From Candidatus Woesearchaeota archaeon (GTDB taxonomy: Archaea; Nanobdellota; Nanobdellia; SCGC-AAA011-G17; GW2011-AR18): a DNA stretch of 64,000 bases. The notes under the pieces were generated by a model that did no database searches, was not told where the DNA came from, and saw nothing but the letters and a program-made list of their open reading frames with translations. Location of the stretch: contig JAGVZM010000002.1 of assembly GCA_018302545.1 (NCBI GenBank), positions 2,198 through 66,197 of the forward strand, read 5' to 3'. Positions 26,043-61,456 of this stretch are shown in pieces. The first letter of the stretch is position 1. Every line of letters starts with the position of its first letter. The translations under genes and the position numbers were made by a program.

Positions 26043-26407
26043 TTGAAGTTCTGGGTTTTCCTGAAGAACACATTAAAGAAATTGTAAAAAAAGTATTAGA
26101 AAAACTAGAAAAAGAAGACGGGATAGAAATAATAAATAAAGAGATACATGAAACCCAAAAAGTAAAGGAAACCTTCTTCTCGTGTTTTACAGAATTAGAA
26201 TTAAAGATACATGATTTAAGTATACTATTAAAGTTCTGTTATGATTATCTTCCCTCAAATATTGAGATATTAGATGCAGATAACATAACTATACCCTCAA
26301 GAGAGTTCAACTTAAGTATAAATGAAATGTTAGAGAGGTTGCACCAATATAATATAATAGTAAACAACCTATCAAACCAAGTCAAAAAATTAGAAAAGCC
26401 TCAGTAG
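26018..26407 (+). CDS. hypothetical protein
   Basis: ORF only. Confidence 0.3.
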   Translation: MVFTIRALIEVLGFPEEHIKEIVKKVLEKLEKEDGIEIINKEIHETQKVKETFFSCFTELELKIHDLSILLKFCYDYLPSNIEILDADNITIPSREFNLSINEMLERLHQYNIIVNNLSNQVKKLEKPQ

Positions 26408-27738
26408 TTCTTTCTCTTTTGAACGCTCTCAACAAAACCCTCAAATTTATCTTTTTTAGGTTTCATTTTTCTATAAACAATAAATATTATTAACAAAAAG
26501 ATTATCAAAAATATAAACAAAAGAATAAAACCATATCCTCCTTCATCTCCATTTTTAATTGTAGTCTTATTAAATTCAACAAAAGAGTTATTAACAGAAT
26601 TATTAATTTCATTATCAACTTGAACATTAATAGATTTATTAAGAACATTCAAACTAACAGGGATACTAACAAAAGCATTTTCTGCACTTCTAACTTTTAA
26701 GGTACCGTAATAATTTCCAGGTTTTAAATTACTACTATCCTTAAACCCAAAAGAAAATGAAATACTATTATTAGCACTTAAAAAGCTAATCTTAGAGGGT
26801 TCAATCTCAAAAAGATCATCATCAAAACCTTCAGTATAATAACTCAAATTATGCAAATCCACACTGGCATTATTAACAACGACAATTTGTCCTGGAGGAT
26901 AATAATCTCCTATGTTTGTATTTGGCAAACTTATATTTATTAATTTTATACCAGAACCTCTAGTTAAGTAAATTGCATCATTAATTCCAGTCAAATCAAT
27001 ATTTTTTTTAGCCAAGTCATCTGGTTTAACATTAGTATCATTATTATTTTCAGATTTTTCAACATAATTAGTATCAATAATAAAAGGAATGATATAATTA
27101 CCAGAACCATAATCAACAAGAATTCTTCCATTAAATCTAGAAGCCCTCTTATTAAATAAAGAAGTTCTGACTTGAACATTTTTAGATTTATCAGGAGCAA
27201 GATTAAAATTAGATTCATCTAAACTAAAAAAGCCGCCTTCTGCAACTAAAGAGATAGAAACAGAATTATTCATTTTATTACTAAAAACTAAAACAAAAGG
27301 CACTTCATCTCCAGAATTTACAGCCTGATAAAAATATCCAGGCCTTATACTAACACTAGATTTATTAACAATCTTAAGATTAGAAAAAAAATCCTGTCTC
27401 TTCAATATCCCCTTTTCAATATAATTTATATTTTTAAAGCCAATCATATATTCCCCAGAAACAACTTGAGGCAAATCAAAATAAAAAGCATAAAAAGTAT
27501 TGTTAATCTTAACCTTATTTTTAATAATATTCAAAGAATTATTATTCATGTCTAATAATACTATATCAGAAACAGAAAGATCCCTATTTAAAGACAAATT
27601 TGTAAAAACTTCAAATTGAACAGTTTCAAAAGAACCATAGTCATTTTTATAAAGATTAATTTCAAAATCAGAAGCATTAACAAAAGAGATAATTAATAAA
27701 AATGAAACAACAACCAAAAAAAGATTTCTAAAAAACAT
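26401..27738 (-). CDS. cell-surface protein (signal peptide, C-terminal TM anchor, N-glycosylation sequon-rich)
   Basis: MFFRNLFLVVVSFLLIISFVNA; C-terminal GFILLFIFLIIFLLIIFIVYRK. Confidence 0.5.
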   Translation of the reverse strand: MFFRNLFLVVVSFLLIISFVNASDFEINLYKNDYGSFETVQFEVFTNLSLNRDLSVSDIVLLDMNNNSLNIIKNKVKINNTFYAFYFDLPQVVSGEYMIGFKNINYIEKGILKRQDFFSNLKIVNKSSVSIRPGYFYQAVNSGDEVPFVLVFSNKMNNSVSISLVAEGGFFSLDESNFNLAPDKSKNVQVRTSLFNKRASRFNGRILVDYGSGNYIIPFIIDTNYVEKSENNNDTNVKPDDLAKKNIDLTGINDAIYLTRGSGIKLINISLPNTNIGDYYPPGQIVVVNNASVDLHNLSYYTEGFDDDLFEIEPSKISFLSANNSISFSFGFKDSSNLKPGNYYGTLKVRSAENAFVSIPVSLNVLNKSINVQVDNEINNSVNNSFVEFNKTTIKNGDEGGYGFILLFIFLIIFLLIIFIVYRKMKPKKDKFEGFVESVQKRKNY

Positions 27739-27739
27739 A

Positions 27740-29602
27740 TTAACCTTTAAGTAATTTTTGAGCTTCCTTTAAGGATTTATCTAAATCATCTTCCCCTTTA
27801 ACTCTAGGGCTAGGGCCTAAGGGTCTTAAAGGCCTTGTGGGAGTAAAAGGCTTTGTAGCAGGTTTAACAGGTTGTATAGTTGGTCTTTGAACAGGTTTAA
27901 ATTCTGCTTGTCTCCTAAAGTTTTCAAAATTGGGCCTATCAGATTTTTTCTTAAACAAACTTCCTAAATCTACTTTACCAGTTTTAACATATTTAAAGTA
28001 AAAGAAAGCTCCTCCTCCCCCTAAGATTACCAAGATAATTAACAACCATAACCACCATAAACTACTAGGCTCATCTTCAATAGGAGGTAATGTGGTGTCA
28101 TCTTCATCATCATCCTTAGGAACCTTAAATGGTTCCTCCTCTTTATCATCATCAGAATCTAAACAAGCAACTCTACATCTGCCGCCACAATCAACACCTT
28201 CCTCATCACCATCTTGTCTTCCATTATCGCAAACACATAAAGGATCCTCAACACATGCAGAATCACCACAATCAGTTAAACCATCTCTATCATTATCAAT
28301 ATCATCTCCACAAACCTCAACATCTAAACTAACTCCATCTGAAGGAGTACTGGGTAAAGAAACCCTAGATAATTCAGCACCATGTAAAGCAATTAAAGCC
28401 CAGGAAGTACTCTCTATACTATTCCCCCAATGACCTTCATCTTTATCAACCCTTTTTTGTAAAAAATCAATGCCTTTAGAGACTGCTTCACCTGCTCCTC
28501 CCAAATCAGTTCCAAGTAAACCAAAAATAGAAACACTTGTATCTTTAATACTTCCTCCCCAACTACCATCAACAGCTCTTTGTAATTTAACTAGATCATT
28601 GATAAAAGAAGGCAATACATTAGAAGCTTTAAATCTAATCCTATTCAAAAAACCCAATTTATCTGCTTGATTTCTTTTAGTTAGAGATTGACTCTCTAAA
28701 TAAATGTGTGTTCCTAAATTATCTAAACTTAACTCACTATTACTTCTAACAGAACCAACTTCAAGTAATGCCCAAGTAGCATATAATGTACTTTCATAAT
28801 CACATCTAGAATCTGTTTTAGTTCTACCAAAACAAGCATTAGCAATTTTTAGATTCGTATTAAAACCCGCATCACTCCTTTGAATAAAAAAAGTACTTGC
28901 ACTTGGTTTAAAAACTAAAGTAATAACTGGATCTCCTAAATCTTGATTACAAGATATTCCAATATTTGGCTGAACTTCTGTTCTAACTAAATTTCTACTA
29001 AGTTCATTTAGACTTATATAATACCCGCTTCTTCCACCTGTTGATTTTATTTTATCTCCCTCAATAGTATATGTTTTGGTCCTTGTACCTCCGTAATTAA
29101 CTTCACAAGTACCATTATTCCCTTTAACAACAATCCACCAATCTCCAGTTGGGGGCATAGCAACCCTAGAACTCCTTAACCAGTTTACTTCTTCACTAAC
29201 ATTCCTTCCAGCCAAAGCTAAAGTCAAAGTAGCTAAAGAAGTATCCTTAACATTACAATTACCTGCAGGCCAACAACCATCAGAATCCCTATTGCTTTCA
29301 ATTCTTTCAATCATACCTTGTACATTAATATCACCTTTTTGCATCAAAGCTATAGTTGATAAAGACATTTCATCCACACTTAAAGATGAAGTATTACTAA
29401 CTTTATCATAGAGCCATTTGTAAGATTTATCTTGACTAAATCCTGAAGATTGAACTCTAAACCTAGAACCAGTACTAGAATCTTGATCTGAACTAGAATC
29501 TTCTTCATCAGAAGAAGTATGGTTTTCTGCATAAGCAAAAGACAGACACATTAAAAAAACCAGAATAATGACTAAAGACTTAAAAAACACACCTCTTTCC
29601 AT
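27740..29602 (-). CDS. surface protein with prenyltransferase/terpene-cyclase-like alpha/alpha-toroid repeats, Cys-rich stalk, TM anchor and Pro-rich cytoplasmic tail
   Basis: signal peptide; repeats DGCWPAGNC..TSLATLTLALAG, DGSWGGSIKDTSVSIFGLLGT, EGHWGNSIESTSWALIALHG; CGDDIDNDRDGLTDCGDSAC; TM LWWLWLLIILVILGG. Confidence 0.5.
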   Translation of the reverse strand: MERGVFFKSLVIILVFLMCLSFAYAENHTSSDEEDSSSDQDSSTGSRFRVQSSGFSQDKSYKWLYDKVSNTSSLSVDEMSLSTIALMQKGDINVQGMIERIESNRDSDGCWPAGNCNVKDTSLATLTLALAGRNVSEEVNWLRSSRVAMPPTGDWWIVVKGNNGTCEVNYGGTRTKTYTIEGDKIKSTGGRSGYYISLNELSRNLVRTEVQPNIGISCNQDLGDPVITLVFKPSASTFFIQRSDAGFNTNLKIANACFGRTKTDSRCDYESTLYATWALLEVGSVRSNSELSLDNLGTHIYLESQSLTKRNQADKLGFLNRIRFKASNVLPSFINDLVKLQRAVDGSWGGSIKDTSVSIFGLLGTDLGGAGEAVSKGIDFLQKRVDKDEGHWGNSIESTSWALIALHGAELSRVSLPSTPSDGVSLDVEVCGDDIDNDRDGLTDCGDSACVEDPLCVCDNGRQDGDEEGVDCGGRCRVACLDSDDDKEEEPFKVPKDDDEDDTTLPPIEDEPSSLWWLWLLIILVILGGGGAFFYFKYVKTGKVDLGSLFKKKSDRPNFENFRRQAEFKPVQRPTIQPVKPATKPFTPTRPLRPLGPSPRVKGEDDLDKSLKEAQKLLKG

Positions 29603-29652
29603 CTTTCATATTCAGCGTAATATATTTATAAAAGTTTCTATAAAGATAAATA

Positions 29653-30156
29653 ATGATGCCTAAAAAATTTATTAAATATAATCCCGAATTATTTGCAAAA
29701 GGAAAGAGAGGTTTGATTTATGTATTTAAAAAAGATAATAAAAAGATAGCAATAAAAATAAAAAATCCAAAATCAGAGGCAAAAGATAGAATTCAAAATG
29801 AAGCAAAGTTTTTAAAAATTTTAAATAAATATAAAATAGGTCCAAAGATAATGACATCTGGTAAAGACTATTTTTGTTATGAGTTTATAGAAGGAAAATT
29901 ATTAAGAGATTATTTAAAAGAAAATAAAAATCCAGAAAAAGTATTAAAACAAATTATGCAACAATGTAAAATTTTAGATAAATTAAAGATAAACAAAAAA
30001 GAGATGCATAAACCTATAAAGAATATAATAATCAAAAAAGATAAAGTAATATTATTAGATTTTGAAAGATGTTATTATGCAAAAAAACCACACAATGTAA
30101 ATCAATTTAAAGAATTTCTAAGAAGATTTAACGAGCATAAGAAGTTTTCCCAGTAG
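29653..30156 (+). CDS. small Bud32/RIO-like atypical protein kinase (possibly inactive)
   Basis: Gly-loop-like AKGKRGLIYVF, K in AIKIK, LLDFERC (DFG-like); catalytic-loop Asp apparently replaced (HKPIKNIII). Confidence 0.4.
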   Translation: MMPKKFIKYNPELFAKGKRGLIYVFKKDNKKIAIKIKNPKSEAKDRIQNEAKFLKILNKYKIGPKIMTSGKDYFCYEFIEGKLLRDYLKENKNPEKVLKQIMQQCKILDKLKINKKEMHKPIKNIIIKKDKVILLDFERCYYAKKPHNVNQFKEFLRRFNEHKKFSQ

Positions 30157-30979
30157 AACTACTTCTTCTAGGAGGAACGCTACTTGCTCTTCTAAGGGGT
30201 TTTAGAGCAGCCCTCAAATCTCTTTGATAAGCCTCACTAGGAACATAACCAGGAACTACAGGCTCTATAATTCCATATTTTCCAGCTAACATTCTACTAA
30301 GCTCATCTCTTGAAAAGATTCCTAATCTATCATCTGGATCTTGATCACTAAAGCCTTTAATAATTTGTTCTGGATTGTATATCCCTGTTCTTTCAATTAA
30401 ACTAAGTAAAGACAAAATAGACCCTCCCCATTCTGGGTTTCTATTATCATTAACTCTAGGATTTTCTATTAAACCTAAATTCCTTTTAATCATAACCAAA
30501 GGATCTTCAACTGTAAATTCAATTCCAAATAATCCATTAGTTTGAGTTCTAGAATAACGATCTTCATAACTTGCATAAGTATCAAAATGATAACTACCTC
30601 TTGAAGGGTCTTCCTCTATCAAAAAATTTGAGGAAGAAGCTATACCTATAGTTTCCTCCCTTTTAGCAGCAAGACCATAAGAACGATGTAATTGAATTAA
30701 GGAATCTGAAGAACCTAATAAAACAACATGATCATTACCTTTCCAATGAGTTAAAACCTCAGTTCCAAATTTATCAACTAAATGCATCAAAGCACCATAA
30801 GCACCAACAAAAGTAAGATTTGATAAAAGTCCAGAACGAATATAAGCATTCAAATCTAAAGCAGATAAAAAAGTTCTTCTTGGAGCAGAATTATCCAAAG
30901 CATCTTGTAAAGCTAAAAATTCTTCAAGTGTTTTTTCACCACTCTTAAAAACAGCTTCTTCTAAATGCCCCAAAACCAT
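30128..30979 (-). CDS. hypothetical protein in Fic island, Arg/Ser-rich disordered C-terminus
   Basis: ORF with higher GC and different codon usage than surrounding genome; same strand and downstream of fic. Confidence 0.4.
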   Translation of the reverse strand: MVLGHLEEAVFKSGEKTLEEFLALQDALDNSAPRRTFLSALDLNAYIRSGLLSNLTFVGAYGALMHLVDKFGTEVLTHWKGNDHVVLLGSSDSLIQLHRSYGLAAKREETIGIASSSNFLIEEDPSRGSYHFDTYASYEDRYSRTQTNGLFGIEFTVEDPLVMIKRNLGLIENPRVNDNRNPEWGGSILSLLSLIERTGIYNPEQIIKGFSDQDPDDRLGIFSRDELSRMLAGKYGIIEPVVPGYVPSEAYQRDLRAALKPLRRASSVPPRRSSSTGKTSYAR

Positions 30980-31046
30980 TCAAAAATAAAAAAATTAATC
31001 ATTTATAAATTTTTATATTGACAAAAAAATAGATCCAAAAGAAGAA

Positions 31047-32024
31047 TTATTCAGATTTAGAATGAACACTAGTTTTAAAACCATAATCAAGTGCACATTT
31101 AGTAACAATCCCATTAACTTGTTTATAACCTATATCTCCTGTGACATCCAATACTTTATCCTTTCTACCAGAACATTCAATATCTAAAATTCTAACTTTT
31201 ACTCCCTGTCCTCCAATATGATGGCCATAACTTCTAATCCTTTGTGCAGTAGAAATAACAATTGCCCTATCAGGAACATCTACTAAAGTAACAACATATT
31301 TCCTCTGAGCCCTTAGATCCTCTTCTAATCTCCTAGCAGAACCCAAAACCTTTGTAGCTACAAATGTTCTAAACAAATTTTCACCATCACTTGGTTTTTC
31401 AAAAGAACTAGTTTTTGCATATCGATCTTTTAAAGCAATATTCAACAGAGCTATGTAATGTTCTCTATCAGAGGGAACTATAATTCCTGGAGTGTATCCT
31501 GATTTTTTCAAGCAATAACCTTGTACTAATCTAGCAGATCTACCATTACCATCTACAAAAGGATGAACTTGAACAATTTCTAAATGTGCTTCTATCGCTT
31601 TTAAAACAGGATGAGCTTGACTGTGTTCCATCAATTCTACTAAACTTTTCATTCTGCCAGCAATTTGATCATAATCATGTGGAGGATTAAAACTCCCAAA
31701 TTGAACTTCAGTAATTCTAAAATTTCTTGTTTTATTTTTATCTGGTTCTATTAAATAACCTAAAGCAGCTAAAGTCCCTAAACTTAAACCATACATATCT
31801 AAATGACTTGAAGCAGAATCTAAATTTTGGAGGGCTACTCTCTCCCTCTTTCTCAAAGCAGATTTTTTTAGATTTTCTTCCTCTAACTCTAAGGACAATG
31901 AATGTTTGGCTGCCTCAGCAAGCAAAGTGTTAAACTCTCTAGTTCTTAATGAACTAGAATATTCTGGATGAACATTAATTCTCTCTACTACTTCATCTAT
32001 TTTAGCAAGTAACTTTTTCATCAT
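31047..32024 (-). CDS. fic: Fic/Doc family protein (adenylyltransferase-type)
   Basis: canonical Fic motif HPFVDGNGRSARLV. Confidence 0.8.
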   Translation of the reverse strand: MMKKLLAKIDEVVERINVHPEYSSSLRTREFNTLLAEAAKHSLSLELEEENLKKSALRKRERVALQNLDSASSHLDMYGLSLGTLAALGYLIEPDKNKTRNFRITEVQFGSFNPPHDYDQIAGRMKSLVELMEHSQAHPVLKAIEAHLEIVQVHPFVDGNGRSARLVQGYCLKKSGYTPGIIVPSDREHYIALLNIALKDRYAKTSSFEKPSDGENLFRTFVATKVLGSARRLEEDLRAQRKYVVTLVDVPDRAIVISTAQRIRSYGHHIGGQGVKVRILDIECSGRKDKVLDVTGDIGYKQVNGIVTKCALDYGFKTSVHSKSE

Positions 32025-32089
32025 TCAGAAAAAATAATAGTCAATTTATAAATCTTTCTATTAGATTACCACCATTAAATAGTAAAAAA

Positions 32090-33397
32090 TTAATGACGGT
32101 TTGATTTCTTCTTAACATTACTAGAAGCCATTTTAAGCATTTTTAAAGCATAATTAACAGGATTCTTGCATTTACTACAAATACCGTCATCACATTTAAT
32201 GCTCATAGTTTTATAATAACTAGGGTTATCACAATTAGGAGGCAAAACCAATTTCTTCTGCCTTTTAAACCAACTTATCTGAGCCTTAACATAACCTTCT
32301 CTTAAAGGTTCAGCATTTCTTTTATTCCACTCAAGCATAAACTTCTCTATATCTTCTAGATTCCAACCAACATTTTGTAAAAAGTTAACTAAAATAAAAA
32401 TGCCTCTCTTCCTTCCATCTTCCTCTACGCCTTGCATTAATTTTAAAATACAAGGAGGAAAATAATCAACCTTTATTGGAACCTTAGGAGCCTCAAACTT
32501 TCTAGTAATTGTTATTTGTTTCTCTTCAATATAATTAGTTTTTCTAGCCCAATCAAAAGCTTGTATCAACAAATTTTTAGCTTCATCCTTTTCAACATTC
32601 TCTGAATCTAAAAATTTCAATCCAAATTTGACATTATCTATCTTTGCCTGTCTAATGTCAAAATCCTTAATAGTCTTCAAAGGTATACTAACTAACCCAG
32701 ATTTTTCATTTATACTATAAGCACATCTAAACAAATGTCTACTAGATATTAAAACACTATCGATATCTACTAACTTAAAAGGATCCAATTTATTCTCTTT
32801 AATAACATCTTCAACTTTTTTTCCAACACTCTTAGCAGCATCTTCTACTGTATGAGTCTCTAAAATCTTAGCACTTAAATGTTCTTTAATCATATTCTTA
32901 AGATATTCAGAAATAACTCTCACACCATCAGGAAAATAATCTTTTATATTAACATTATTAACATTAGAAGGGAAAGCTTCAAAAGGAATACCAATATGGA
33001 ATCCACGATTACCTGAATATTTTATAGAAAAATTCTTAACATCATTAAACCTTAAAGCATCTTCTAAAAATTCAGCGCACATAATACTAAAGTTTAAATT
33101 TTTACTATCCAAATCCAAGATACAACTCCAACCAATCCTTAAGTTATCTAATTCTTTCTTACTCAAACCACTTTCAAGCATCATAGGATCTTTCCAAATT
33201 TCCTCACTAACATGAAAAGAAGTCATACCTTGTTTAACTAAATCATTAATATCTCCCTGAAAATTAACAATCTCTGGTCTTTTTCCCCTAATATCTCCAA
33301 ACCAAGCCTGAACCTCTCTATTTTGAGATAGTCTCATCAATTCTTTTTGAACTTCGTTTTGAGAATAATACTCTTTTATTTTTTTAAGATCAGACAT
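32090..33397 (-). CDS. priS: archaeo-eukaryotic DNA primase small-subunit (PriS)-like protein with C-terminal Cys-cluster extension
   Basis: AEP motifs ILDLDSKN (DxD) and YSGNRGFHIGIPF (SGxRGxH); C-terminal CDNPSYYKTMSIKCDDGICSKC. Confidence 0.55.
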   Translation of the reverse strand: MSDLKKIKEYYSQNEVQKELMRLSQNREVQAWFGDIRGKRPEIVNFQGDINDLVKQGMTSFHVSEEIWKDPMMLESGLSKKELDNLRIGWSCILDLDSKNLNFSIMCAEFLEDALRFNDVKNFSIKYSGNRGFHIGIPFEAFPSNVNNVNIKDYFPDGVRVISEYLKNMIKEHLSAKILETHTVEDAAKSVGKKVEDVIKENKLDPFKLVDIDSVLISSRHLFRCAYSINEKSGLVSIPLKTIKDFDIRQAKIDNVKFGLKFLDSENVEKDEAKNLLIQAFDWARKTNYIEEKQITITRKFEAPKVPIKVDYFPPCILKLMQGVEEDGRKRGIFILVNFLQNVGWNLEDIEKFMLEWNKRNAEPLREGYVKAQISWFKRQKKLVLPPNCDNPSYYKTMSIKCDDGICSKCKNPVNYALKMLKMASSNVKKKSNRH

Positions 33398-33465: not shown

Positions 33466-34005
33466 TCATCTTCTATTATAAATACTAACCCCTGCATTAG
33501 TCAATCTAAATTTAACAAAATATTTTCTTAAATCTAAATTTCTAACTACGCATTCAAAGACTCCTAAAGCCCCTTGATGACTAACAATTAAAATAGTTCC
33601 AGAATTATGTTTCTGTAATATGTAACTATAAAATTTCTTAATCCTCTTTTGGACGTCCAACCAATTCTCACCACTAAAAGATTTCTGATGAAATTTATCT
33701 CCTTTCAAATCAGCATGTTCATATTCTTCCTTGCTTTTACCTTCAAAGATACCATATCTTTTTTCTCTTAATAACCTGTTCTTAATAATCTTAACATTAT
33801 GATATTTAGCGATAATTTTAGCAGTATCAAGACATCTTTTCAAATCACTTGTATAAATAATCTCAATTTTATTATTTTTTAAAGATTTAGCAGTCTTCTC
33901 AACTTGATCCTTTCCTTTCTGAGTTAAATGCCCAGGTAACCAACCTTGAATTATATGTTTTCTATTTTCTCTAGTTTGACCATGCCTGACAAAAATTAAT
34001 TTCAT
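33466..34005 (-). CDS. histidine phosphatase family protein (phosphoglycerate-mutase-like)
   Basis: LIFVRHGQTRENR (RHG motif), YTSDLKRCLDTAKII. Confidence 0.7.
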   Translation of the reverse strand: MKLIFVRHGQTRENRKHIIQGWLPGHLTQKGKDQVEKTAKSLKNNKIEIIYTSDLKRCLDTAKIIAKYHNVKIIKNRLLREKRYGIFEGKSKEEYEHADLKGDKFHQKSFSGENWLDVQKRIKKFYSYILQKHNSGTILIVSHQGALGVFECVVRNLDLRKYFVKFRLTNAGVSIYNRR

Positions 34006-50289: not shown

Positions 50290-53200
50290 TTATTTACTCT
50301 TTTTTAAATCTTTTCTATTCCTAACATTAAAAATAGAGTAGTAAACAATCAATAAAACTAAAGCAAAAACTAAAGCCCCTATGCCCCAACCAGGAATATT
50401 GTTGGATTCAAAACCAGTAGCACAAACCCCTACAACTCTAAGCGGACTACTCAAACCCATTGCTGTAGCTTCTGCTTGAGTTATTTGATTGGTATTACAA
50501 ACATCAAAACCTAAAGCTGCAAAATTCTGACCACAAGTAACCTCAACATCATCCAACTCTCCATCATTATCTAAATCAATACAACTCTTAAGATTAACAA
50601 AGGACGTCCCAGGAATACCTCTTGTACAAGATTGGCAACAATTAGGTTCATTTATATTACCAGATAAAGAAAGATTACCATTACAAGCTTCACCAACACC
50701 GCATAAATATCCTCTAACACTACCGCAACTAACTGATCCTCCACCAGGACCTCTACCTATTATACTTCCACAATCGTTTCTACAAACACCATCACCACAA
50801 CAAGTCATTCCTCCAAGACAGTCATTATTATTAAGACACTGCCCTCCTATATTAGTAATTCCAGTATACAAAAGACAACTAGGACAAAAACTAGAATTAA
50901 ATCCTCCTAAAGCATTTTCTAGATCAGAAACAGGACCATAATGAATCCAACCTAAGTAAAGATAAGTAGCATTCATAGGAGCAACATAATTAAAATTTAT
51001 TATACCATTCAAAACAGGTATAGCTGTTAGAGTATCTAAAACTACAAGAGAATTAGTATCATTAAATCCAACAACAAAGCTAGTTGCATATCCTGAGAAT
51101 ATTGAAGAACCTCCTCCAAAAGTTGGATCTTCTCTTACACAACTACACTGCAAACTAACTGTTTGACCAACAACAGCTGTAACCATCATTCCTCTATTAG
51201 TTATTGCAGTTCCATTGTTCCAGACACATTCAGTTTGACAAGTATTAGAACAAATAGGATCAGGAAGAACTCTACAAATACCAGAATTCGCACCTTGTTG
51301 AAGAGCGCTACTTCCACTATTAAGATCACAATAAAATCCAGTGCCTAAGGAAGAACAATCATTATTACTACTACAAGTAACAACCTCACATAAACTAGTT
51401 GAAGGATTACAAACCTCAGTTAACCCACAGTCATTATTGGTATTACAAATTGAACAAGTTCCAGTTTGACAAATCAGACATTGCCCAACTAAAGGATTGC
51501 TAGTTCTTAAACATCTTGCATCAGGATAATTCTGACAAGTTCTACCAATCCTACAACCAGAAACACACTGACATCCATCACAAACTTCCCCAATACTACA
51601 ATCACTATCAAAAACACAACTAGCATTAACAATATGAAGTAATTGATCATTTCTATTTCCAGAATCACAAATTAAATTATTATTTGTAGAATTTAGAAAA
51701 TTAAAAGCATATCTTCCCTCATCTAAAAAAGCAGAAGATAAGAAACCAGTACTACCAAAACGAATTGGTGAATAATTACCATATGAAAAAGAGTTATTAT
51801 CTAAATCTCTTAAAGTAAAATTCAAAGATCCACTATTCAAAACATTTCCTTGTGAATCTAACAAACAAGAAAGATAACCTATAGCAGAGTCTCCCTCTTC
51901 AATCGTTAAATTATATCCATTACCGCTATGTAAAATACGGCCGTCAGTCCAATTACAAGAAGGATTACAATTTAAACCTAAATTAGGATCTCTAACTTGT
52001 AAAACCCCTCTAAAGTTATCTACAGAATTACAATTAGGATTAGGAGCACCACCAACTGTAAATATATAAACCCCAGGAGTAGAAGGAACAAAAGATCTAA
52101 TAGCATTACCATTAGTAACACCAATATTAGTATCCACTAAAACAGGGGCAGTTAAACTATTAAAGATATTATAAATCACCAAATTTGTATTTGTGCTATC
52201 TAACAAAGCACCAGAAGAATCTTGTAAACATGAAGCATTTATCATAACATTATCTCCTGTGTTTACACTAACAACATTAGGACCTGAAAGATAATTCCCT
52301 CCTTCCCACTGACAACCAAGATTACATGATACACTAGAAGCTGCCCTAAGAAGACAACTAACTTTATTTCCATCATTATTACAAGAGTAATTAGGATCAC
52401 AAAAATATTGTCCTAATTGATAAACATTTTTACAAGAAGCAAAATCACCAGAACAACTCCATCCATCAGAGACATAACCACAAAGACCTTGATGAGTACC
52501 ACCACCAATTTGAGGACTAACACAAATATTAGTAGAAATATCACAAGTTTCTCCAAGATTACAATCAGAGTTACTCAAACATCCAGGTCTACAAAGACCA
52601 CTAGAAAAATCACAAAAATTACCACTAGGACAAGTAAAACTTTGAGAAGAACAAGTAAAAGTACAAATACCAGGGCTAGCAACTCTTAAATCACAAGTTT
52701 CTCCAAGATTACAATTATTGTTGCTCAAACATCCAGGTCTACAAATTCCAGAAATAGTATCACAATAATTTCCCGAAGTACAAGGAGCATTTTGTCCACA
52801 ATTGTTAGGTGATTGAATTCCACAAATTCTAGTATTAGGATCACAATAATTAGAGCTACACTCTATGTTATTATTACATGAAAGTCCATCAGTTTTTTTA
52901 GGATCACACGAAACACCACTTCCTATATTACTGCAATAATAATTAGTATTACAAAAATATTCTGATGCAGTTAGACCCGAAACTTGTTTACAAGAAGTAA
53001 AATCCCCTGAACAATACCATCCATTTATAGTATCCCCACAATATCCAATATAATTAGTTATAGTAGTTCCACCACTTTGTTGTCCAATAACACAAGTATT
53101 AGTAGTAAAGTCACAAGTCTCACCAGTATCACAAAATTGATTTATTTGTCCACAAGGAGCTCCAGGTATAGCAAAAACAAGTTCAATAGAAAATAAACTA

Positions 53201-53304
53201 ATTAAAACAGCAATAAGTAAAAATAATCCCCTCTTTAACATATAAAATAGAACATCAAAATAGCTATTTAAAATTATTCTTTTAATCAGACCAGATAGAA
53301 ACAA
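50290..53304 (-). CDS. giant (1004 aa) cysteine-rich cell-surface protein with tandem Cys modules and C-terminal TM anchor
   Basis: N-terminal TM/signal; repeated CxSGNxCDxxSGxCRPGCLSNxxCNLGETCD modules; C-terminal GIGALVFALVLLIVYYSIF then basic tail. Confidence 0.55.
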   Translation of the reverse strand: MFLSGLIKRIILNSYFDVLFYMLKRGLFLLIAVLISLFSIELVFAIPGAPCGQINQFCDTGETCDFTTNTCVIGQQSGGTTITNYIGYCGDTINGWYCSGDFTSCKQVSGLTASEYFCNTNYYCSNIGSGVSCDPKKTDGLSCNNNIECSSNYCDPNTRICGIQSPNNCGQNAPCTSGNYCDTISGICRPGCLSNNNCNLGETCDLRVASPGICTFTCSSQSFTCPSGNFCDFSSGLCRPGCLSNSDCNLGETCDISTNICVSPQIGGGTHQGLCGYVSDGWSCSGDFASCKNVYQLGQYFCDPNYSCNNDGNKVSCLLRAASSVSCNLGCQWEGGNYLSGPNVVSVNTGDNVMINASCLQDSSGALLDSTNTNLVIYNIFNSLTAPVLVDTNIGVTNGNAIRSFVPSTPGVYIFTVGGAPNPNCNSVDNFRGVLQVRDPNLGLNCNPSCNWTDGRILHSGNGYNLTIEEGDSAIGYLSCLLDSQGNVLNSGSLNFTLRDLDNNSFSYGNYSPIRFGSTGFLSSAFLDEGRYAFNFLNSTNNNLICDSGNRNDQLLHIVNASCVFDSDCSIGEVCDGCQCVSGCRIGRTCQNYPDARCLRTSNPLVGQCLICQTGTCSICNTNNDCGLTEVCNPSTSLCEVVTCSSNNDCSSLGTGFYCDLNSGSSALQQGANSGICRVLPDPICSNTCQTECVWNNGTAITNRGMMVTAVVGQTVSLQCSCVREDPTFGGGSSIFSGYATSFVVGFNDTNSLVVLDTLTAIPVLNGIINFNYVAPMNATYLYLGWIHYGPVSDLENALGGFNSSFCPSCLLYTGITNIGGQCLNNNDCLGGMTCCGDGVCRNDCGSIIGRGPGGGSVSCGSVRGYLCGVGEACNGNLSLSGNINEPNCCQSCTRGIPGTSFVNLKSCIDLDNDGELDDVEVTCGQNFAALGFDVCNTNQITQAEATAMGLSSPLRVVGVCATGFESNNIPGWGIGALVFALVLLIVYYSIFNVRNRKDLKKSK
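52541..52745. repeat. intragenic direct repeat (two about 55-nt copies, about 90% identical, 52541..52595 and 52691..52745)
   Basis: TCACAAGTTTCTCCAAGATTACAAT...CTCAAACATCCAGGTCTACAAA occurs twice; encodes repeated Cys module. Confidence 0.5.
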
Positions 53305-61321: not shown

Positions 61322-61456
61322 CGCAAGTTCAAATCACAAGAGTTTCGCAATATTTAAGTAATACAAGCCATAAGTACAATATAACTAGGAGAAAACAAAA
61401 CAAGAGGGTGAAGCGTTATTCGTCAAAACCCACTCTCGAAAGTTCAGATCATAAAG

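Follow-up and report, generated by a model that had tools for sequence, protein, structure and literature searches.

Three classes of Fic inhibition have been described, told apart by the place of the inhibitory (S/T)xxxE(G/N) helix: class I has it in an antitoxin encoded upstream, class II ahead of alpha1 and class III after alpha7. Together they account for 90% of canonical Fic proteins (PMC3667792). In the nucleotidyltransferase toxin MenT3, the Asp of the Pol-beta motif (D80) and the toxin-specific residues K189 and D211 are essential (PMC7450476). The locus described here carries a gene for a Fic-domain protein of 325 amino acids (aa), followed on the same strand by a gene for a 283-aa protein, hereafter the partner, with the predicted fold of such nucleotidyltransferases. 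It lies in a stretch of 64,000 nucleotides (nt) of contig JAGVZM010000002.1 from a Candidatus Woesearchaeota archaeon, and this whole stretch is called the window below. To our knowledge, Fic enzymes are seldom found in archaea and have not been studied there. The two genes are best read as independent, separately transcribed accessory genes that stand side by side in a hypervariable slot between a primase gene and a kinase gene, a reading to which we give slightly better than an even chance. The Fic gene would have been gained by this lineage only, and the partner next to it would be a resident, fast-evolving pseudo-nucleotidyltransferase.

Both open reading frames (ORFs), which an earlier sequence-only reading of the window had picked out, are real. 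The Fic protein matches the Pfam profile PF02661 with 48.8 bits (cut-off 24; E=1.4e-12), and a 100% identical NCBI protein bears the name 'Fic family protein [Candidatus Woesearchaeota archaeon]'. The signature HxFx(D/E)GNGRxxR is complete, and the motif had rightly been called canonical. Human FICD is the best solved relative, matched by phmmer across residues 88–197 (E=6e-14), and this alignment takes in the flap segment (RNFRITEVQFGSFNPPH in the window protein, aligned to GRFRTTQVLVGHHIPPH). A bacterial class II Fic profile aligns to residues 110–197 only, with 42% identity in hhalign, and the N-terminal 109 residues are not alignable. When the N-terminal 109 and the C-terminal residues (about 85) were searched alone, no credible sequence match was obtained; the best one for these terminal segments was to Mx1 at E=0.07 and was treated as noise. 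Residues 241–322 gave generic ferredoxin-like structural matches only. Apart from copies of the same protein from other samples, no full-length relative was found in a protein collection of 5.8 billion clusters, in JGI metagenome contigs or in viral contigs, and word-indexed homology searches returned self matches only for both proteins, besides matches to the Fic core. These results indicate that the protein is a genuine Fic enzyme, predicted from its motif to be catalytically competent. As in the family, it would transfer AMP (or another nucleoside monophosphate) from a nucleotide triphosphate to a Ser, Thr or Tyr hydroxyl of a target protein, with His154 as the probable catalytic base.

A strict search for (S/T)xxxE(G/N) gave no match in the Fic protein or in the partner, and in the six frames of 29600..32400 the pattern was confined to ORFs of 11–22 aa. 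The inhibitory motif, which the sequence-only reading had proposed to look for, occurs neither in the two proteins nor in any small ORF nearby. All bacterial Fic matches carry the inhibitory TSNAIEGN, whereas the window protein lacks it and is shorter in this part by about 40 residues. Two near-misses were seen, TLLAEA at residues 33–38 (E37) before the core and TSSFEK at residues 205–210 (E209) after it, and the relaxed pattern [ST]xxxE has four matches, which is about chance frequency by estimate. By its sequence, the window Fic would fall in the remaining tenth, outside the three inhibition classes. Because the canonical inhibitory Glu helix is missing, the enzyme may be constitutively active or controlled otherwise, possibly via its orphan C-terminal alpha/beta domain.

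The partner had no match in Pfam, NCBIfam, PADLOC or PHROGs, and no relatives in viral contigs, plasmids or phages. In an exhaustive search with HMMER, 16 distant relatives (237–265 aa, 24–35% identity) were obtained, and a profile search with the family alignment returned three proteins. The alignment reads FGGYAVLxHL ... WRGSxDIDMxG ... CKIDF ... LIxxKL ... HxxD(I/V)xxLLGVLExR, which is a Pol-beta-type nucleotidyltransferase signature, and the partner is assigned to the nucleotidyltransferase fold. No match was obtained when 17 family members were compared with Pfam, including AbiEii/DUF1814, at E<=1, or when the family profile was compared with PDB sequences. The motifs were then tabulated for 19 family members, among them the window partner, the protein P0018 and a homologue from the same slot of a related genome (locus L016). 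The residues GG, D-[ILV]-D, the third D, K and HxxD are kept in 16 of the 19. In the window partner, GG is changed to GA, DxD to HxV (H84-V-V86), K to N and HxxD to WxxS, and the third D is kept as D133 (YHFDT versus CKIDF in the family). The five motifs read GE, GxK, Q, E and AxxC in P0018, and GY, VxD, I, H and AxxS in the L016 slot gene. These three proteins group together in a neighbour-joining tree. The conserved K (LIKSKL) and HxxD of the family, which are N and WxxS in the partner, may correspond to K189 and D211 of MenT3. With GG, DxD, Lys and HxxD of the signature lost, the partner is concluded from these motifs to be a pseudo-enzyme. Its family, which has not been described before, is archaeal and has a MenT/AbiEii-like Pol-beta nucleotidyltransferase fold. 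The partner is most likely a binding or regulatory protein, not a transferase. Its C-terminus is Arg/Ser-rich as had been noted earlier, and an Arg/Ser-rich, Tyr-containing C-terminal tail is common to the partner and its nearest relative, P0018. A scan of JGI metagenome contigs with P0018 gave no match.

Other members of the family were found in various gene neighbourhoods. P0034 lies between genes for an ABC ATPase and a SpoU-like methyltransferase. The end of P0025 (L004:5633-6723; also in L005–L009) overlaps the start of a conserved 125-aa ORF without a family (stop on start), NUDIX and His_Phos genes come next, and this may be a small operon. P0020 (L028:174-1695) and P0021 (L029:62-1559), both catalytically intact by motif, lie 30–40 nt directly upstream of a GatB/GatE amidotransferase gene, which hints that intact members of the family may act on tRNA. 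None of P0020, P0021, P0025 and P0034, all of them intact members, adjoins a Fic gene.

When the adjacent fused primase was used as an anchor, 11 related loci were obtained from metagenome-assembled genomes of Woesearchaeota/Nanoarchaeia, with primase identities of 38–77%. The order L34e, L14e, prefoldin, primase, slot, kinase (reverse strand), a 620-aa and a 445-aa surface protein and two further ORFs is kept in 9 of the 11. The Fic gene is absent from the slot and from within about 10 kb of it in these nine syntenic genomes, and no related locus has one. In L018 and L021 the slot is empty (about 150 nt or less). It holds a 346-aa protein without an assigned family in L017, a HEAT-repeat protein with a 219-aa ORF in L019, a winged helix-turn-helix protein in L025 and a solo Cas4-like PD-(D/E)xK nuclease in the more distant relative L024 (11232-11882). 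In L023 (11269-13736), also more distant, a solo nuclease of the same type is accompanied by an S-adenosylmethionine methyltransferase, which matches the PADLOC mad2-like model (E=1.4e-22), and by an APH-type kinase. L016, the closest relative (primase 77% and kinase 65% identical), has a lone 253-aa homologue of the partner in its slot (blastp E=6e-10, hidden Markov model E=1.7e-15), which is 27% identical to the partner, while the flanks are 65–77% identical. Because the nearest relative has this homologue without a Fic gene, the partner was probably already resident in the slot. A single Fic gain in the window lineage, with the pseudo-enzyme already in place, is the most parsimonious history, and the earlier idea that both genes arrived in the same acquisition does not hold.

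In another explanation, the Fic gene is a stand-alone SoFic-type gene for anti-virus defence in a small defence or accessory islet and the partner is irrelevant. The Fic protein is lineage-specific and matches both the PADLOC SoFic model (E=3.5e-14) and the PADLOC PDC-S04 model, and the solo Cas4-like nucleases, the MADS mad2-matching methyltransferase and the APH-type kinase in the slots of relatives would suit such an islet. However, the SoFic match is confined to the Fic core (residues 69–178 against model positions 102–218 of 361), and against the NCBIfam SoFic equivalog NF046030 the protein reaches 20.5 bits with a cut-off of 550, so that it does not match SoFic at full length. In addition, SoFic is a class II protein with the inhibitory Glu that the window Fic lacks (PMC3667792), and the slots of the relatives hold an unrelated mix of genes, not recognisable systems. 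This explanation is very unlikely.

Fic effectors that bacterial pathogens secrete, VopS and IbpA among them, have no inhibitory motif. The window Fic shares this feature, and as a lineage-specific protein it might be an effector that an episymbiotic DPANN archaeon exports to modify the proteins of its host cell; two large genes for secreted or surface proteins are found nearby (26401..29602). These surface-protein genes, however, are conserved in relatives without Fic, the Fic N-terminus shows neither a signal peptide nor any other recognisable secretion signal, and nothing is known on protein injection by Woesearchaeota. An effector role is scarcely probable.

The base composition of the region was compared with the 69 ORFs of the window. 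Both genes had been placed by the sequence-only reading in an island of about 40% GC, but the GC content of the Fic-partner region is 32.5%, where the window averages 29.3%; 8.3% of equal-sized windows reach or exceed 32.5%, and the highest 300-nt sub-window of the region is at 0.36. The Fic ORF has 32.9% and the partner ORF 33.6% GC, with a mean of 29.6 ± 3.4% for all ORFs (n=69). At the third codon position (GC3), both ORFs are under the window mean of 18.1% (15.6% for Fic and 13.0% for the partner), and the slight excess is located in the first and second positions (GC1 and GC2). It reflects amino-acid composition, not foreign DNA. The content of Phe, Tyr, Met, Ile, Asn and Lys (FYMINK) is the third lowest of the 69 for Fic and the second lowest for the partner, and R/(R+K) is high in both. 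The lowest FYMINK value belongs to the syntenically conserved 620-aa surface-protein gene at 27740..29602, and the partner homologue in L016 shows a pattern like that of the partner (33.1% GC and 10.6% GC3 inside a locus of 28.0% GC). Since this conserved neighbour and the L016 homologue share the pattern, the composition is no mark of recent transfer. Fic (rank 62 of 69) and the partner (49 of 69) are among the ORFs of the window that deviate least in synonymous codon usage. The Arg codons of the partner had been described as CGN/AGR; both genes use AGA/AGG as elsewhere in the window, and the partner has four CGT besides.

These results leave little room for a recently acquired GC-rich island that brought a Fic toxin and its partner as one unit. 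Such an island would agree with the absence of Fic from the syntenic site in relatives and with the atypical amino-acid composition of both proteins. However, the GC content is no outlier, GC3 and synonymous usage are native, and the partner homologue occurs without Fic in L016. Neither an integrase nor a tRNA target nor flanking repeats were found at the locus (the sole tRNA of the window is at 61456), and a mobile-element origin was rejected for lack of an integrase, a tRNA and terminal repeats; the sole repeat flanking Fic is a promoter-like pair of 32 nt with 75% identity. The island is highly improbable. Of the horizontal acquisition that had been proposed, a lineage-specific gain of Fic remains plausible from its absence in nine relatives, while the GC and codon usage cited for it are ordinary.

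Transcription signals were compared across 70 genes of the window. The element TTTAWAWA occurs at -27..-32 from the ATG in 14 of the 70, against about 1.3 expected from motif density, and this fixed placement implies, as a sequence-based prediction, leaderless archaeal transcripts. The same element is found at the primase gene (-29), the kinase gene (-28) and the 620-aa gene (-30), and one example lies at 29625..29632. The ribosomal-protein operon (about 35–48 kb) has no such element within it, and its genes are preceded by GGAGG-like sites instead. Fic and the partner each have such a TATA-like box (Table 1), and by these consensus matches they are most likely separate transcription units. 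No Rfam match was obtained in a scan of the region.

Three further metagenome assemblies of the species contain the locus, at 99.7–100% nucleotide identity. In 4.3 kb, this genome and a second assembly differ by 8 substitutions and one 3-nt deletion, all within 29956..30153. The final 29 nt of the partner ORF (its last 9–10 codons) overlap the 3' end of the convergent 167-aa kinase ORF, and most differences lie in this overlap and alter both C-termini; those of the partner are all in its tail. No difference between strains was observed in Fic or in the partner body. Both genes are intact and maintained.

The arrangement of the two genes raises the question of a functional module, a toxin-antitoxin or defence pair of a new kind, in which Fic would be restrained by the partner or act through it, with the partner as an inhibitor or an AMPylated substrate. 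The genes are adjacent and co-directional with a gap of 67 nt, and Fic has no cis inhibitory motif of any kind. The partner might act as a stoichiometric inhibitor, as nucleotidyltransferase-like antitoxin domains do in AbiE/MenAT systems, or its Arg/Ser-rich, Tyr-containing tail, seen also in P0018, might be a substrate. The partner diverges much faster than the flanks (27% versus 65–77% identity), which is typical of conflict genes, and the Fic core matches the SoFic defence model of PADLOC. In contrast, separate TATA boxes precede the two genes, Fic is followed by a T-run, the partner tail differs between strains, and the L016 homologue is solitary. The partner is downstream and large and lacks (S/T)xxxE(G/N), unlike class I antitoxins (PMC3667792). 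Moreover, searches of about 5.8 billion clustered proteins and of JGI metagenome and viral contigs gave no second case of such a pair. A module of this kind, though the main rival to two independent genes, is rather unlikely, and it is distinctly unlikely that the pseudo-nucleotidyltransferase restrains Fic, or serves as its AMPylation substrate via the Ser/Thr/Tyr-rich tail, as a fourth mode of Fic control. In the earlier proposal of a toxin-type AMPylator with a partner, the Fic assignment was right, and the toxin-with-partner part gained no positive support, with no inhibitory motif and with separate TATA boxes.

Several points weigh against two independent genes as the explanation. Adjacency, a common strand and a 67-nt spacer are equally expected of a functional pair, and a Fic without an inhibitory helix is expected to need some restraint. 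Loss of a toxin can leave an orphan antitoxin, and so the solitary homologue in L016, which such a loss could account for, is no proof of independence. P0018, the sole other close relative of the partner, lies on a contig of 1.4 kb and has a layout like that of the window, in which a co-directional gene ends 66 nt upstream and a convergent gene overlaps downstream. The grouping of the three degenerate proteins in the neighbour-joining tree could be long-branch attraction. The promoter calls are predictions from consensus matches. Finally, the AlphaFold2 model of Fic is poor (predicted local distance difference test 50.9), and an inhibitory Glu that is structurally equivalent but divergent in sequence may exist, for example E37 in T33LLAEA or E209 in T205SSFEK.

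Table 1. Positions of the features of the Fic-partner locus in the window.
Feature	Position	Strand	Basis
Fic-domain protein gene, 325 aa	31047..32024	-	ORF; Pfam PF02661 (E=1.4e-12); human FICD match; 100% identical NCBI protein
Fic signature HPFVDGNGRSAR, residues 154-165, with His154	31530..31565	-	translation; columns invariant in the Fic alignment
Fic core and flap region, residues 89-197, sole part alignable to known Fic proteins	31434..31760	-	phmmer to FICD; hhalign
C-terminal orphan domain of Fic, residues 241-322	31059..31304	-	predicted beta-alpha-beta-beta-alpha-beta
Partner gene, 283 aa, predicted catalytically degenerate protein of MenT/AbiEii-like nucleotidyltransferase fold	30128..30979	-	
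His84-Val85-Val86 of partner, at the catalytic Asp-x-Asp position of the family	30722..30730	-	motif table of 19 members; alignment
Arg/Ser-rich C-terminal tail of partner, residues 255-283 (...LRRASSVPPRRSSSTGKTSYAR)	30131..30217	-	translation
TATA-like box TTTATAAA, 28 nt upstream of Fic ATG	32045..32052	-	consensus match
TATA-like box TTTATAAA, 30 nt upstream of partner ATG	31002..31009	-	in 32-nt, 75%-identical repeat with Fic promoter region
T7 run, 17 nt past Fic stop codon, possible archaeal oligo-T terminator	31023..31029	-	weak evidence in an AT-rich genome
Variable slot, from conserved kinase gene to primase gene	30157..32089	.	differing content in nine syntenic genomes
Conserved flank: small Bud32/RIO-like kinase gene, 167 aa	29653..30156	+	weak kinase-family matches; same position in 8 related loci, 44-67% identity
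Conserved flank: fused PriS-PriL primase gene, 435 aa	32090..33397	-	PF01896 + PF04104; 11 loci, 38-77% identity

Several observations concern the genes around the slot and elsewhere in the window. The primase is one fused PriS+PriL polypeptide in all related genomes, and in L025 its ORF (331-1854) has an N-terminal insertion ending ...THNC, with an intein-like look. Between the prefoldin and primase genes, the window has a His_Phos_1 phosphatase gene (33466..34005, reverse strand), a second lineage-specific insertion next to the slot with Fic: none of the 11 related loci has an orthologue less than about 10 kb from the primase. A link via the His_Phos genes near members of the nucleotidyltransferase family was rejected as coincidence, the two proteins being only 29% identical. 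The 620-aa secreted protein (27740..29602, reverse strand) has an acidic Cys-rich repeat, which matches NCBIfam acid_disulf_rpt below the cut-off (E=2.3e-6), and a C-terminal membrane anchor. Further away, a 983-aa ORF (50290..53241, reverse strand) has a composition that is very odd for the genome (Lys 1.1%, GC2 0.49 and GC3 0.12), and it is probably a surface or S-layer-type protein.

The Fic protein combines a perfect catalytic motif with two orphan domains, has no recognisable brake and comes from a reduced DPANN genome, which makes it a reasonable choice for biochemical work. The partner led to an unannotated archaeal family of MenT/AbiEii-like fold, in which most members look catalytically intact and a small sub-clade appears to have turned into pseudo-enzymes, and this by-product may be more useful than the Fic gene. 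If a pseudo-nucleotidyltransferase did control Fic or serve as its substrate, no earlier module of this sort would be on record for DPANN archaea. For the scanning of genomes, a GC impression taken by eye was off by 7–8 points here. A sliding-window GC and codon-usage check found no outlier GC and typical synonymous usage, and the presence or absence of Fic in related genomes was informative; in very AT-rich genomes, the acquisition signal is carried by synteny, not composition.

Compared with the known Fic proteins, the window Fic is like FICD/HYPE and the bacterial class II enzymes (SoFic; MerR/HTH fusions) in the HPFxDGNGRxxR motif, the flap and the alpha-helical core. The class II enzymes carry the TxxxEGN inhibitory helix, which the window Fic lacks, and an orphan alpha/beta domain forms its C-terminus in place of a helix-turn-helix or tetratricopeptide-repeat part. 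Class I FicTA pairs (VbhT/VbhA, EcFicT/FicA) resemble the locus in having a Fic without a cis inhibitory helix and a neighbour gene. However, class I antitoxins are small, lie immediately upstream and carry (S/T)xxxE(G/N) (PMC3667792). The gene upstream of the window Fic is the primase, while the neighbour in question is downstream, codes for 283 aa without the motif and has a putative promoter to itself.

On the side of the partner, the closest described proteins are the DUF1814 toxins (AbiEii, MenT1-4). The partner has no sequence match to Pfam AbiEii/DUF1814, and residues of the class that MenT3 cannot do without, D80/K189/D211 (PMC7450476), appear to be lost from it. An AbiE or MenAT operon has AbiEi/COG5340 or MenA upstream of the nucleotidyltransferase; this position is taken by Fic in the window, by the primase in L016 and by unrelated neighbours in other relatives. 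The C-terminal domain of AbiEi and the antitoxin Rv2827c/MenA4 are nucleotidyltransferase-like, but the partner has no winged helix-turn-helix domain. A Fic protein is involved neither in the AbiEi and MenA4 systems nor in the type VII systems HEPN-MNT and TakA-TglT, in which an enzyme modifies its partner.

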